Below are positions 1,652 to 34,010 of a stretch of 64,000 nt of DNA, piece after piece. The stretch's first letter is position 1. Every line of letters starts with the position of its first letter. This DNA comes from an uncultured Chlamydiae bacterium. Its GTDB lineage: Bacteria > Chlamydiota > Chlamydiia > Chlamydiales > JAJFMB01. The DNA lies in the NCBI GenBank assembly GCA_963696295.1, contig CAVOJR010000001.1:1248001-1312000 (forward strand). The letters are read 5' to 3'. A program made the translations under genes and the position numbers. Below the pieces are notes generated by a model. It was given only the letters and a program-made list of their open reading frames with translations, was not told the DNA's origin and ran no database searches.

Positions 1652-2404
1652 CTATTTGTCAAGAGGCAATCTATAAGCCTCTGTCTTTGGGGAATTCTCC
1701 CAGATCGCCCGTGCGCCATCGTAGGCGGCGTAGAGCGGCTCCTGCTCTGTGCCCAAGTTATAAGTTACGCGCATCAGCCGTTCTTTTTCAGATAAACTAT
1801 CCAAGGGATAGCCTCTGCCCGGATTTCTTTCCTGCAAGGGCAAGTGATCAATGCCGCAAAAAGCTGTGATGATATCGATAACGTCCTGATCCCACAAATG
1901 CTCATACTTGACGGCCAAAATGCAGCTTTCTTCTAAAGGACACCTTTCCAGCGAAAGCCACTGCCGCAGGTGTTCCTCAATTCCCAGAGCATCGCAGCTG
2001 AGCAGGTTATCTTCCAGAGTCTGATTTGTCGTACCGCAGATTCTCCGATGCCACATCAGATCCGAAGTCTCCACATGATTGAAATGCCAAAAGCCCCATA
2101 ATCTATTTGCCAGAGAAACATGTAAAACCGATTCAGCGATCCGGTCGGGATTAGAATAGATAAAAATAATTTTCCCCTTCCACACTTTGGGGGGCAAAAG
2201 GTGGGATTTCAAAATAAGCTGGGTTGAAACGCATTGGGTTAAAACCATCACTAATAGAGTACTGCCGGAACGGCCGGGACTGCAGATCATGATATAATCA
2301 CTTTTATCCTGAAAAGGAATTAATCTGTCGCGCATGTCGATAAACTTCCATCCGTGACATTGAGAGATAAACAAAGAGATCAAAAGCCACGTCCTGATGG
2401 TCAT
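1652..2404 (-). CDS. Sulfotransferase-like protein with signal peptide (paralog A)
   Basis: ICSPGRSGSTLL resembles the 5'-PSB loop; KSH and VKYEHL motifs; hydrophobic leader MTIRTWLLISLFISQCHG. Confidence 0.6.
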   Translation of the reverse strand: MTIRTWLLISLFISQCHGWKFIDMRDRLIPFQDKSDYIMICSPGRSGSTLLVMVLTQCVSTQLILKSHLLPPKVWKGKIIFIYSNPDRIAESVLHVSLANRLWGFWHFNHVETSDLMWHRRICGTTNQTLEDNLLSCDALGIEEHLRQWLSLERCPLEESCILAVKYEHLWDQDVIDIITAFCGIDHLPLQERNPGRGYPLDSLSEKERLMRVTYNLGTEQEPLYAAYDGARAIWENSPKTEAYRLPLDK

Positions 2405-3144
2405 CCCCCCCCCAATCTATAAGACTGGACCTTTGGAGAACTCTCCCAGATAGCTCGCGCGCCATCGCAAACGGCATAGCGCGGCTCCTGCTCTGTGCCC
2501 AGGTTATAGGTTTTGCGGATCAACCGCTCTTTTTCCGATACCGAATGCAAGGGATATCCCCTCTCTTTCATTTCGGGCAAAGGAAAGCTTTCCAATTGGC
2601 AAAAATTTTTGATTATAGCGATCACTTCCCGGTCCCACAAATGCTCATATTTGACGGCCAGGATACAACTTTCTTCAATCGGGCATTTTTCCAGCTTGAG
2701 CCACTGCCTCAGATGCTCCTCTATGCCCAAAGCATCGTAATTCAGCAGGTTATCTTCAAGGTTTTGATTCACCGTGCTTCCCAACTTTTGCAGCCACTTA
2801 GGATCAGTAGTCTCCATGCGATTGAAATGATAATACCAATAGCCATCCTCCAAAGAGACGTGAAAAATCGATTCATCCGCCTTATCGGGATTGGAAAATA
2901 TAAATAGAATCTTTCCTTTCCAACCTTCCCTGGGGGGCAGGAGATGGGACTTTAAAATAGTTTTTTTTGGAAGAGCCTTGTCCAAAGCATCTGACAGCAT
3001 AGTGCTTCCCGATCGTCCCGTGCTGCAGACCATGATGACGTCTTCTCTATCTTGAAAGAATTTTAACTTTTCATGAGAGTCGATAAATTCCCATCCAAAG
3101 CAAAAAGAAAAAGGCAGGCTCAAAAAAAATAGGAGTGTTTTCAT
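2401..3144 (-). CDS. Sulfotransferase-like protein with signal peptide (paralog B)
   Basis: VCSTGRSGSTML, KSH and VKYEHL motifs; leader MKTLLFFLSLPFSFCFG; aligns end to end with 1652..2404. Confidence 0.6.
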   Translation of the reverse strand: MKTLLFFLSLPFSFCFGWEFIDSHEKLKFFQDREDVIMVCSTGRSGSTMLSDALDKALPKKTILKSHLLPPREGWKGKILFIFSNPDKADESIFHVSLEDGYWYYHFNRMETTDPKWLQKLGSTVNQNLEDNLLNYDALGIEEHLRQWLKLEKCPIEESCILAVKYEHLWDREVIAIIKNFCQLESFPLPEMKERGYPLHSVSEKERLIRKTYNLGTEQEPRYAVCDGARAIWESSPKVQSYRLGGG

Positions 3145-3299
3145 CGTCCTCTATTCTCCGAATAGTTCTTGAGAATATAATTAAGCAATTCCCATTTGTC
3201 AACTGGTTCCCTCAAAAAAAACTTGAAAAAAAATAGAAAGAAGAAGTTAATAGACTTAATTAATACGCACGATGCATGCCAAAAAACAGGAAGAATTCG

Positions 3300-3941
3300 A
3301 TGGTTATTTTTAGGGTAATATTATTTTTTAATATATTAATTTCTTATGGCTTTGCTCACGATAACAACTTGGAACAATACTTAAGCGGCCGCATTCCAGC
3401 TGAAGACAAACGATATAACTCCTTCCTTTATGCTCTTCAACTGATGCATGATTGTGACGCCAAAACTTTATTAGAAACGGGCACCTCAAGAGACGGCGAT
3501 ACCAATTTCACCGGGGATGGGGGAGCGACTATTATATTTGGTCAATATGCCAAGGAAACAGGTGGACTGCTTTACACTGTAGATATTTCTCCGGAAGCCA
3601 TAGCTGCAGCACAACAGGCTACGCAGCTTTATGCCGATCATATAAACTATGTTGTGAGCGATTCTCTGCTTTTTTTAGCAGATTTCAATGGATATATCGA
3701 CTTTCTGTACTTAGACAGCTATGACTACGATTGGGAAAACCCGGGACCTTCCCAAAATCACCATCTCCAAGAAATTATCTTGGCACTTCCCCACCTGCAT
3801 GATAACAGCATCGTCATGATTGATGACTGCCAATTACCTGGAGGAGGGAAGGGCTTGCTGGTTATCGAATACTTAAAAAGACGTGGATGGGTGGTGGTTT
3901 ACGATGGGTACCAGACCATCATGAGAAAATCTTCGCTCTAA
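3300..3941 (+). CDS. Class I SAM-dependent methyltransferase (Methyltransf_24-like) with signal peptide
   Basis: LLETGT, VDIS, IDFLYLDS and MIDDC motifs; leader MVIFRVILFFNILISYGFA. Alternative start at 3276. Confidence 0.8.
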   Translation: MVIFRVILFFNILISYGFAHDNNLEQYLSGRIPAEDKRYNSFLYALQLMHDCDAKTLLETGTSRDGDTNFTGDGGATIIFGQYAKETGGLLYTVDISPEAIAAAQQATQLYADHINYVVSDSLLFLADFNGYIDFLYLDSYDYDWENPGPSQNHHLQEIILALPHLHDNSIVMIDDCQLPGGGKGLLVIEYLKRRGWVVVYDGYQTIMRKSSL

Positions 3942-32015: not shown

Positions 32016-33092
32016 ATGCTACGCTACATCATTTTTTTTGTTTTTTTCTTTGGTTCTGCCTTCTCAGAAAAAACGGTGTTTATTACCGGAGCCGCGGGTT
32101 TCATCGGAAGTAATTTTCTGGAATATATGTATGATAAATATCCGGATTACAATTACATCGTCCTCGACGCACTGACCTATGCAGGCAATTTAGATAATAT
32201 TCCAAAAAACATTCAATCGGCTAAAAATTTCAAGTTCATCCAAGGAAATATTACTAATTACCCCTTAGTGGAGCAAATCATGCAGGAGGCCACCTATGTC
32301 GTACACTTCGCGGCTGAAACGCATGTCACACGAAGTATCTCAGACGACTACGCTTTCTTTGAAACCGATGTTTTAGGCACTAGAGCTTTGATGCAGGCTT
32401 TGGTCAAATGCCAAGTGGAGCGCTTCATTCACATTTCCACATCCGAGGTTTATGGGACAGCCGTGTATCAGCCTATGAACGAAGAGCATCCTTTAAACAC
32501 AAGGAGCCCTTATGCCGCCGCTAAAGCGGGCGCAGACAGACTGGTCTTTGCTTATGGCTGTACCTTCGATGTGCCTGTGGTGATCATCCGCCCTTTCAAT
32601 AACTACGGCCCCAGGCAGCACTTAGAAAAGGTTATTCCCCGTTTTATTGCTGCCGCAATTCAGGGGGAGCCTATAACCATTCATGGGCAGGGGACCCAAT
32701 GCAGAGATTGGGTTCATACGCATGATGTGTGCATAGCCTTGGATAAAGTGCTTCACACTCCTGATTTTTCTAAATTAAAAAACCAGGCGATAAATATTGG
32801 ATCAGGCAAACCAGTCAGTGTGCTGGAAGCGGCAAAGATGATTCTGAAATATTTCCATCTGCCCGAAACGCATCTCAAGTTCATTACCGACCGCCCCGGA
32901 CAAGTCGAACTGCATGTTTCCAGCACCGAAAAAGCGCAAAAATTACTAAATTGGCAATCTGTTATTGACTTTGAAGAGGGGCTGGCAAAAACCATTACAT
33001 GGTATGTAAACAACCCTGCCTTTTGGGAAGGGAAAAAAGAGAATGCGCTGGTAAAAATCAGAATAAATCATGAACAATATGAATTACAGTAA
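32016..33092 (+). CDS. NDP-glucose 4,6-dehydratase (RmlB/RfbB-like) with signal-peptide-like leader
   Basis: TGAAGFIGSNF, DALTYAGN, HFAAETHV, YAAAK and NNYGPRQ motifs; leader MLRYIIFFVFFFGSAFS. Confidence 0.9.
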   Translation: MLRYIIFFVFFFGSAFSEKTVFITGAAGFIGSNFLEYMYDKYPDYNYIVLDALTYAGNLDNIPKNIQSAKNFKFIQGNITNYPLVEQIMQEATYVVHFAAETHVTRSISDDYAFFETDVLGTRALMQALVKCQVERFIHISTSEVYGTAVYQPMNEEHPLNTRSPYAAAKAGADRLVFAYGCTFDVPVVIIRPFNNYGPRQHLEKVIPRFIAAAIQGEPITIHGQGTQCRDWVHTHDVCIALDKVLHTPDFSKLKNQAINIGSGKPVSVLEAAKMILKYFHLPETHLKFITDRPGQVELHVSSTEKAQKLLNWQSVIDFEEGLAKTITWYVNNPAFWEGKKENALVKIRINHEQYELQ

Positions 33093-33104
33093 TCAGAGTA
33101 TAAA

Positions 33105-34010
33105 ATGTTAAAATTTCTATGCCTTCTTATATTTTTATTCCCTTTAGAAGCAAAAAACGAAACATTTCTGGTCTATGGAGGCAATACGGGATGGATTGGG
33201 CAAAAACTGGTACAGCTTATAAAAGATCGAGGATATACGGTCTTTGCTGCCGGAGCGCGGTTGGAAAACAGGGAAGAGATTGAAAAAGAAATCAATGAAA
33301 TAGAGCCCGATTACATCATCAATGCCGCCGGAGTAACCGGCAGACCCAATGTGGATTGGTGCGAGAGCCACAAGCAGGCAACCCTTAGAGCCAATATTAT
33401 CGGCGCTTTAAATTTAGCAGATATCGCCTATCAGCATAACATTCACATGACGAATTTCGGCACGGGATGCATTTATCAATATGATGAGGCCCATCCTATC
33501 GGAAGCGGCATTGGATTTACGGAGGAAGAGGAGCCCAATTTTGCCGGTTCCTTTTATTCCAGAACCAAAATCATGCTCGACAAACTTCTGTTGAATTATC
33601 CCAATGTTTTAAACTTGCGCCTGAGAATGCCCATATCTGCCGACTTGCATCCCAGAAATTTTATCACAAAAATCACCAAATACCAAAAAGTGATCGATGT
33701 GCCGAATTCCATGACTGTTCTGGATGATTTATTGCCCGTTGCTATAGAAATGACCCATTTGGGTTTACACGGAAATTACAATTTCACCAATCCGGGCACC
33801 ATCTCGCACAATGAGATTCTGGCCATGTATAAGCAATATATCGACAAGGACTTTACCTGGCAAAACTTCACGGTGGAAGAACAGAATCTCATCTTAAAAG
33901 CGCCAAGGTCCAATAATGAATTGGATGTCAGCAAACTGCTTTCCCAATTCCCCAATATTCCGCCCATCAAAGAAGCGATGGTGCGTGTTTTCGAAAAAAT
34001 GGCTTCCTAA
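33105..34010 (+). CDS. Eukaryotic-type NDP-4-keto-6-deoxyglucose 3,5-epimerase/4-reductase (NRS/ER, UER1-like) with signal-peptide-like leader
   Basis: YGG.TGWIG, AAGVTGRPNVDWCESHK, TGCIY, PNFAGSFYSRTK, LRLRMPI, RNFITKI, NFTNPG.ISHNEIL and APRSNNELD motifs. Confidence 0.88.
   Translation: MLKFLCLLIFLFPLEAKNETFLVYGGNTGWIGQKLVQLIKDRGYTVFAAGARLENREEIEKEINEIEPDYIINAAGVTGRPNVDWCESHKQATLRANIIGALNLADIAYQHNIHMTNFGTGCIYQYDEAHPIGSGIGFTEEEEPNFAGSFYSRTKIMLDKLLLNYPNVLNLRLRMPISADLHPRNFITKITKYQKVIDVPNSMTVLDDLLPVAIEMTHLGLHGNYNFTNPGTISHNEILAMYKQYIDKDFTWQNFTVEEQNLILKAPRSNNELDVSKLLSQFPNIPPIKEAMVRVFEKMAS

Follow-up and report, generated by a model that had tools for sequence, protein, structure and literature searches.

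The window analysed here, 64,000 nucleotides of a genome from an uncultured Chlamydiae bacterium (C1:1248001-1312000, C1 being contig CAVOJR010000001.1), carries ten genes for glycan-building and glycan-tailoring enzymes dispersed between positions 1652 and 34010. Positions given without a contig or locus are those of the window. The source genome consists of 3.43 Mb in two contigs and is 97% complete by marker count. Its relatives among the genomes searched are Chlamydiota, and where close homologues come with a name, it is Chlamydiota or Parachlamydiales. A sequence-only reading had proposed that these enzymes bear signal peptides and may constitute an extracytoplasmic glycosylation system. 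All ten open reading frames (ORFs) were found where that reading placed them, Pfam or fold evidence backs every family label, and in nine of the enzymes the catalytic domain is indeed immediately preceded by a short N-terminal leader of basic and hydrophobic residues.

At the left end, two genes on the minus strand encode ST1 (1652..2404), a 250-residue protein of predicted sulfotransferase fold with the leader MTIRTWLLISLFISQCHG followed by W, and its paralogue ST2 (2401..3144; leader MKTLLFFLSLPFSFCFG, then W). The proteins are 62% identical and the genes share a 4-base overlap. The P-loop of ST1, SPGRSGST, occupies residues 42-49. MT24a, a Methyltransf_24 protein (3276..3941, plus strand), has a leader ending in ILISYGFA before H and an ETGT motif at residue 67. 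The NodZ-like (GT23-type) fucosyltransferase lies at 7903..8718 on the plus strand (leader MRLLFFIFYLTSLHA, then N), and is followed by a 29-codon ORF on the same strand (8758..8847) that starts with ATG, encodes a clean leader beginning MQNILILLFFSVYFG and ends in a stop codon at 8845-8847. The tenth protein, which has a sulfotransferase domain with the P-loop GERHSGT, is read on the plus strand from 8844..9599, that is, from GTG codon 36 of the ORF at 8739-9599. On the minus strand at 9810..11060 is GT34-MT, a GT34 glycosyltransferase fused to a Methyltransf_24/3 O-methyltransferase, with the leader MRTLFLSIFTFFYWINLSA before S and DAD at residues 92-94. A second Methyltransf_24 protein, MT24b (17625..18263, plus strand; leader MFRSLLIATILISTTSIFA, then N), is encoded by a gene with a GC content of 0.329. 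The remaining three are an FkbM-family methyltransferase (30612..31310, minus strand; leader MKIRAILFFLSMPLFCFC, then SYYSQ), an RmlB-like NDP-hexose 4,6-dehydratase (32016..33092, plus strand; leader MLRYIIFFVFFFGSAFS, then EK) and an NRS/ER-type 3,5-epimerase/4-reductase (33105..34010, plus strand; leader MLKFLCLLIFLFPLEA, then K). The genes of this last pair are separated by 12 bases. The dehydratase has the motifs GAAGFIG at residue 25, STSE at 141 and YAAAK at 166, and the NRS/ER protein has GGNTGWIG at 25, GTGC at 119 and YSRTK at 151. Judged by such motifs, the window enzymes appear to have kept their catalytic residues.

Most of the family assignments come from Pfam. The Methyltransf_24 matches score 39.1, 37.3 and 49.2 bits against a cut-off of 26.3, Glyco_transf_34 in GT34-MT scores 83.9 bits (cut-off 23), and FkbM scores 65.8 bits in Pfam (cut-off 22.7) and 37.9 bits with TIGR01444 (cut-off 37.7). 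The NodZ-like protein scores 35.1 bits against a cut-off of 28.3, matching profile positions 142-281 of 322, and also has a weak FUT8 match. The dehydratase belongs to GDP_Man_Dehyd (231.5 bits)/Epimerase and the NRS/ER protein to RmlD_sub_bind/Epimerase. Residues 19-297 of the NRS/ER protein align with PDB 4qqr (E 7e-112), and it also matches the UDP-L-rhamnose synthase 7jid (E 7e-67), which we take to be Mimivirus L780. Because the first alignment opens at residue 19, residues 1-18 are an add-on. The dehydratase likewise aligns with dTDP-glucose 4,6-dehydratases from residue 19 (PDB 6bi4, E 4e-73). Among the eight window proteins scanned against NCBIfam, no family was found for ST1, MT24a, the NodZ-like protein or the tenth protein, and GT34-MT gave one weak sub-threshold match.

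The sulfotransferases are more divergent. ST1 falls under the Pfam Sulfotransfer_1 cut-off (18.2 vs 22 bits), ST2 has no match, and weak Sulfotransfer_1 matches occur in 3/12 members of the ST1 family. In the alignment of these 12 sequences G44, R45, S46, S48 and T49 are invariant, forming a G-R-S-x-S-T loop. The AlphaFold model of ST1 has a pLDDT of 85.7, with the leader as a detached helix of low confidence (below 50). In a Foldseek search of this model against PDB the top ~50 matches are all sulfotransferases that use 3'-phosphoadenosine 5'-phosphosulfate (PAPS), although the similarity is modest (best E 2.5e-4, TM ~0.4). Model and alignment together predict a sulfotransferase fold with a conserved 5'-phosphosulfate-binding loop for ST1. 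In the family of the tenth protein, 11/13 members match Sulfotransfer_1 (best E 2.1e-7); the window copy does not. Profiles of the ST1 and tenth-protein families gave nothing significant against PDB sequences (best E 0.14 and 0.98).

The leaders are not a product of misplaced starts in the three cases where the sequence leaves no choice. The first 50 codons of NRS/ER, GT34-MT and MT24b contain no second ATG, GTG or TTG, so that the leader has to be translated for a complete fold to be made. For the NodZ-like enzyme the leader proposed earlier stands, and the start probably does not. The ORF from its first ATG (7822-8718) overlaps psd, whose stop is at 7852, and GTG 7903, codon 28 of that ORF, is the likelier start. 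The tenth protein, for which a leader had been suggested with reserve, also has a likely one, but it lies in the +1 frame, in the 29-codon ORF described above, and none is clean in its own frame. A T7 run is present at 8782-8788 within this leader ORF. A paralogue of the tenth protein at C1:1712504 has a clean leader, and in the family a leader precedes the GERCSGT loop in 19/19 non-self relatives (by eye). The tenth gene therefore likely once had an in-frame leader that a frameshift cut off. The frameshift may be real or may be an assembly error.

The anatomy of the leader was determined from 110 NRS/ER and 115 dehydratase leaders; paired figures are given in that order. The n-region has a median length of 5 residues and a net charge of +1.75 and +2.0, with at least one K or R in 109/110 and 114/115 sequences and in all nine in-frame window leaders. 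It is followed by an apolar stretch with a median length of 12.5 and 12 residues (range 8-23), which reaches 20 residues or more in only 1/110 and 4/115. These medians fall inside the roughly 7-15 residues expected of an h-region. The eight residues after the stretch have a net charge of -0.64 and -0.03. By a rough test, the stretch closes in agreement with the -3/-1 rule, which asks for small uncharged residues at both positions, in 52/110 sequences (shuffles 19.3±4.1) and 40/115 (17.6±3.9). At the nine cleavage sites proposed earlier, position -1 is always A, G, S or C, and position -3 is small or aliphatic. A type II Golgi architecture, consisting of an anchor of ~17-20 or more residues and a stem, is not matched; the short leaders run straight into the first β-strand. 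Taken at face value, these features are those of a cleavable Sec signal peptide of N-in/C-out orientation, and not those of a membrane span or a cytoplasm-facing anchor. That ST1, ST2 and FkbM, whose leaders contain Cys, might be lipoproteins was rejected, the residues ahead of the Cys being unlike a lipobox.

The frequency of such leaders in the genome was then compared with chance. A crude rule classifies 448 of 2825 greedy ORFs (16%) as signal-peptide-like, and 7/10 of the window leaders; GT34-MT is classed as transmembrane-like, the rule having run into the first β-strand. The first two versions of the rule misplace or miss some leaders, for example those of the NodZ-like protein and GT34-MT. 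Since some leaders are missed, counts obtained by rule are lower bounds. The window families had been chosen for the trait and are unusable for a test against chance; three Pfam families were therefore taken blind to leaders. Leaders were seen by eye in Sulfotransfer_1 (6/6), GT2 (4/10, beside which there is one further membrane synthase) and GT1 (8/11). Together these give 18/27, far above the 16% background (binomial p = 4e-9). Leader-bearing paralogues of the window enzymes are also present, 5/5 for the NodZ-like family, 3/3 for MT24 and 2/3 for FkbM, in addition to a GalE-like short-chain dehydrogenase/reductase (SDR).

Leaders recur in the closest homologues and across Chlamydiae. The distribution of the ten families over an even set of 200 further Chlamydiota genomes is patchy, with each found in 6 to 29 of them. 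One genus (23-24 sampled genomes; listed members 1.0-1.2 Mb) has no homologue of the seven queries NRS/ER, ST1, GT34-MT, MT24b, NodZ-like, FkbM and the tenth protein. Where the families do occur, leaders were counted by a strict rule that gives lower bounds, with the copies of the window genome included. They are found in 15/15 ORFs of NRS/ER, 13/13 of the ST1 family, 25/29 of MT24, 21/29 of the NodZ-like family and 23/31 of FkbM, a count that takes in one ORF from the separately retrieved locus L011; the FkbM leaders stop just ahead of a conserved YYSQ. The GT34 family has them in 8/13 ORFs, with 2 more by eye, and the dehydratase in 7/10, with 2 more by eye and one leaderless SDR resembling GDP-mannose dehydratase among the rest.

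The wider homologue sets are the best 120 from a collection of 5.8 billion proteins. Among the best 120 NRS/ER sequences, 112 have a leader by rule, 3 have truncated leaders and 5 are fragments or differ at the N-terminus. Among the best 120 dehydratases the rule finds 106 and inspection by eye 11 more; 3 have non-hydrophobic extensions. The ~50 closest GT34 relatives have short leaders abutting the DIAVVT strand (by eye). In fungal (Mortierellaceae) GT34 relatives a signal anchor is followed by a long stem; some small relatives lack both (by eye). Across more than 200 homologues, the leader property is kept while the leader sequence itself diverges.

The NRS/ER family shows how the trait is distributed. 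At the level of 50% clusters, leaders are seen in a handful of representatives only; the others start at the Rossmann strand or are fused to a dehydratase or cupin domain. All 22 leader-bearing rows of a 64-row tree group in a single clan (SH-aLRT 99), which persists when N-terminal extensions are trimmed and is nested among leaderless or fused relatives; the tree is unrooted, its rows were hand-picked and its groups are defined by the trait. Inside the clan, rows labelled Babeliales, Babeliaceae or Dependentiae are intermixed with chlamydial rows. Eukaryotic and viral relatives have no leader, which indicates that the leader was gained and not inherited. The plant- and virus-type rhamnose enzyme is spread among bacteria only in the leader-bearing form. 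According to Yin et al. (2011, PMC3220709), the NRS/ER domain had only four known bacterial homologues at that time, every one of them from Verrucomicrobia.

In the Babeliales-type NRS/ER loci (L010, L011 and L013) nearly every glycan gene bears a leader: UDP-glucose dehydrogenase (at L010 7502-8893), GT2, GT4, GT47-exostosin-like, GT10, GT32-like, RXYLT1-like, TylF, FkbM and Methyltransf_24. In three Babeliales-type genomes ~19-20 of 25 GT2-domain ORFs have a leader by eye. L010 also contains a leaderless ORF (12130-12849) with a weak match to a TcdA/TcdB-type glycosyltransferase domain.

The ten window genes have a GC content of 0.33-0.465 compared with a genome ORF median of 0.476. Four of them fall under the 5th percentile of the genome (0.375), and the core genes between them have 0.47-0.55. 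Signal-peptide-like ORFs overall have the GC of the genome median. Low-GC genes set among core genes suggest a mosaic of many separate insertions of acquired genes.

Some of the intervening ORFs bear on secretion. ORFs resembling type 3 secretion genes sctJ/L/R/T lie inside the window at 25.1-29.7 kb (25122-29679). Directly upstream of them, at 21702-25046 (plus strand), is a gene for an 1114-residue protein with a PPPPP-rich N-terminus and three long internal repeats, a candidate secreted effector. Two further leader-bearing ORFs were labelled by eye. One at 31457-31939 (minus strand) resembles an MsrB-type methionine-sulfoxide reductase with the hydrophobic leader MNMIKEILLSCFFLSFLAADC, and a large one at 4105-6225 (plus strand) resembles DsbD. 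Together these would suggest extracytoplasmic protein repair.

The genome also contains a separate, cytoplasmic route to rhamnose. A canonical leaderless rmlA-C-D-B operon is located at C1:1203776-1206984, so that the leader-bearing dehydratase and NRS/ER pair constitutes a second, differently addressed rhamnose route. A leader-bearing Sulfotransfer_1 gene comes directly after the operon and overlaps it by 4 bases (C1:1203776-1207751 for the whole). More leader-bearing ORFs fill C1:1.211-1.224 Mb. The strong NTP_transferase match in the genome, read as RmlA, is leaderless, and no leader-bearing sugar-1-phosphate nucleotidyltransferase accompanies the interconversion enzymes. Thus the sequence-only reading was right about the leaders, which are real and conserved, and a separate leaderless rml set exists, but its exported "whole pathway from nucleotide-sugar synthesis" was overstated; what bears leaders is interconversion and not a complete pathway. 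A search of the genome for GT8 found none. A regular expression for the GDP-mannose dehydratase hallmark, a weak test that is not relied on, also found none in the genome ORFs.

The sulfate donor provides a clue to where the enzymes act. No APS kinase was found in this 97%-complete genome, while the control search was positive in 11/14 reference genomes. PAPS must therefore come from outside. In-frame leaders are present in all 6 Sulfotransfer_1 ORFs, in ST1 and ST2 and in the paralogue of the tenth protein, with only the tenth protein's own leader out of frame. The genome has four NTT/TLC nucleotide transporters. Chlamydial NTTs import NAD and nucleotides, and Chlamydia has transporters for S-adenosylmethionine (SAM), according to PMC5381601. 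Such host metabolites thus reach the periplasmic face. For NDP-sugars the sole candidate found is an EamA/DMT protein with weak, sub-threshold matches to the nucleotide-sugar, TPT and UAA families. Its gene (C1:1239896-1240831) lies ~7 kb before the window and ~1 kb from metK, with one ORF between. Signal peptidase I and two secretins are present.

Our preferred interpretation, to which we give an even chance, is that the enzymes are exported by Sec to the periplasm or the lumen of the vacuole and there use host-derived donors. The conserved leaders would take all ten glycan-building and tailoring enzymes through Sec, probably with cleavage, and the enzymes would work in the periplasm or in the lumen of the host-derived vacuole. 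Outside the cytoplasm, the dehydratase and NRS/ER would convert an NDP-glucose, most likely UDP-glucose of the host, to NDP-L-rhamnose. The GT34, NodZ-like, methyl- and sulfotransferase enzymes would add or decorate sugars, with Gal/Xyl-type residues, fucose, O-methyl groups and sulfate. The host would supply PAPS, GDP-fucose, UDP-sugars and NAD(P)H to the compartment.

A number of points weigh against this interpretation. Supply is a weak point. Outside the cytoplasm, NRS/ER would depend on NAD(P)H and the methyltransferases on SAM, neither of which is known to be available there, and MetK is present in the genome, so that SAM is made in the cytoplasm. No eukaryote-type nucleotide-sugar transporter (PF03151, PF04142) scores over the cut-off in the genome. 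The acceptor itself is another such point; the candidates are the surface of the bacterium, a secreted protein and the matrix of the vacuole. The leader rule is home-made and some counts were made by eye. Leaderless homologues occur in some genomes (FkbM at L132 and L139-L141, GT34 at L034), which means that the trait can be gained or lost. The dehydratase falls under the cut-off of TIGR01181, the equivalog model for dTDP-glucose 4,6-dehydratase (308.1 vs 365.1 bits, NCBIfam), and has STSE in place of the STDE of RmlB. It is classed, as far as its sequence goes, as an NDP-hexose 4,6-dehydratase-like SDR, with a substrate that the sequence does not fix. The export route is also affected, as the only secA gene (12365-15400, plus strand) is split into at least 4 ORFs. 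The 1025-residue SecA frame of a relative covers it collinearly, with frame changes near 12.9, 13.25, 13.35 and 14.0-14.15 kb; the ORF at 12910-13311, for instance, ends at a stop codon at 13309-13311. Among sequencing runs only two soil DNA sets with a small share of matching sequence were found, and no RNA set was listed; when these two were aligned to secA, only short pieces from other organisms were recovered. The breaks represent either assembly error or gene decay. Because the gene is essential, single-copy and collinearly covered over its full length, they look more like assembly error. The frameshift in the tenth gene may be of the same kind.

The same leader evidence would fit enzymes that are exported by Sec and then carried onward to the host, through type II secretion or in vesicles, to act there as glycan-remodelling effectors. 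The two secretins are in keeping with this, and the host cytosol holds PAPS, SAM, NADPH and NDP-sugars, so that the donor problem would disappear. Many of the families are also of Golgi type (GT34 and GT23-like here; GT47, GT10 and RXYLT1-like in the Babeliales loci). We nevertheless consider this unlikely, since Sec substrates have no known route across the vacuole membrane, making NDP-rhamnose would be purposeless in a host that supplies donors unless a bacterial product is built, and so many enzymes (the 18 of 27 in the three blind families) look more like a biosynthetic set than like effectors. Somewhat less probable still is that the leaders are uncleaved N-terminal anchors, a tethering that the sequence-only reading had offered as an option, and that the enzymes sit on the cytoplasmic face of the inner membrane with cytoplasmic donors and a membrane acceptor or exporter. 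An N-terminal helix does tie some envelope glycosyltransferases of bacteria to the membrane, and the arrangement would remove every cofactor problem, MetK and the cytoplasmic rml operon being in place. The anatomy speaks against it. A median apolar length of 12 residues, with so few stretches reaching 20, is too short to span a membrane, and the positive charge precedes the stretch, with neutral to acidic residues after it, which points to N-in/C-out. In addition PAPS cannot be made in this cytoplasm, and soluble interconversion enzymes have no evident need of an anchor where a leaderless set already exists.

Finally, the leaders might be non-functional, either as miscalled starts or as inert relics of signal anchors on transferred eukaryotic genes. 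Codon 21 of the dehydratase gene is a GTG, starts had to be revised for the NodZ-like and tenth ORFs, the low GC of the window genes suggests acquisition, and the fungal GT34 relatives do have signal anchors. Against these stand the three proteins without an alternative start and the persistence of leader properties in more than 200 homologues whose leader sequences have diverged. Furthermore, eukaryotic and viral NRS/ER proteins are leaderless, and the leaders here have nothing like the long stems that come after the fungal GT34 anchors. This explanation is highly improbable and already close to refuted. Export by Sec with use of host donors in the periplasm or vacuole remains the reading that we prefer.

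In textbook accounts, extracytoplasmic glycosylation in bacteria draws on lipid-linked donors, and enzymes that use nucleotide-sugars, PAPS or SAM are taken as cytoplasmic. A full-text literature search, with most subscription journals outside its scope, turned up no description of glycan enzymes with such leaders in either Chlamydiae or Dependentiae. The nearest precedent is the glycogen of the C. trachomatis inclusion lumen, which is made from host UDP-glucose delivered by the recruited host transporter SLC35D2 (Gehre et al. 2016, PMC4829429). That system has in common with the predicted one that sugar enzymes operate outside the bacterial cytoplasm, in the vacuole. According to the same paper, the glycogen enzymes have no signal peptide and leave by type 3 secretion, whereas the window enzymes have Sec-type leaders. 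The window set, known from genes alone, is also far wider, including rhamnose synthesis and fucosyl-, GT34-, methyl- and sulfotransferases.

The eukaryotic Golgi contains type II Leloir glycosyltransferases and sulfotransferases, carries out nucleotide-sugar interconversion in its lumen and is supplied by SLC35 transporters. It shares with the bacterial loci GT34, GT23-like and PAPS sulfotransferase families, together with GT47 and GT10 in the Babeliales loci, as well as an N-terminal hydrophobic targeting segment and, by prediction here, catalysis that is topologically outside the cytosol. The differences are that the window leaders, in the manner of cleavable bacterial signal peptides, are short and pass directly into the catalytic domain, and that this genome has no nucleotide-sugar transporter over the cut-off to correspond to the SLC35 supply. 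A comparison with the leaderless plant NRS/ER (4qqr) and giant-virus synthase (7jid) leads to a similar picture. The window NRS/ER shares their fold, Cys and YxxxK, but it has an 18-residue leader and a bacterial RmlB-type partner. The plant and giant-virus enzymes are cytosolic.

Leloir-type enzymes that use host donors outside the bacterial cytoplasm are also found among toxins and effectors, such as Legionella Lgt/SetA, NleB/SseK and the large clostridial toxins. These enter the cytosol of the host through type 3 or type 4 secretion or by way of endocytosis, without a Sec leader, and attach sugars singly to host proteins. They are not accompanied by sugar-nucleotide interconversion enzymes, methyltransferases or sulfotransferases, unlike the window set.

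A broader proposal, which we put forward tentatively and hold to be somewhat less probable than export in this organism, is that two unrelated protist-infecting phyla, the environmental Chlamydiota and the Babeliales/Dependentiae, run a Golgi-like extracytoplasmic glycan factory on host donors, and that the leader-bearing genes have moved between the phyla as ready-made cassettes. Such a factory would comprise Sec-exported Leloir glycosyltransferases, PAPS sulfotransferases, SAM methyltransferases and nucleotide-sugar interconversion enzymes, including a leader-bearing UDP-rhamnose pathway and, in the Babeliales, UDP-glucose dehydrogenase.

If a large and conserved set of such enzymes is indeed sent out of the cytoplasm, the periplasm or vacuole of the parasite would be a metabolically supplied compartment, as it is for one polymer in C. 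trachomatis. Undescribed glycans bearing rhamnose, fucose, methyl groups and sulfate would then be expected at the interface of parasite and host, and leader-bearing sulfotransferases in a genome without PAPS synthesis would provide a testable marker of dependence on host donors.

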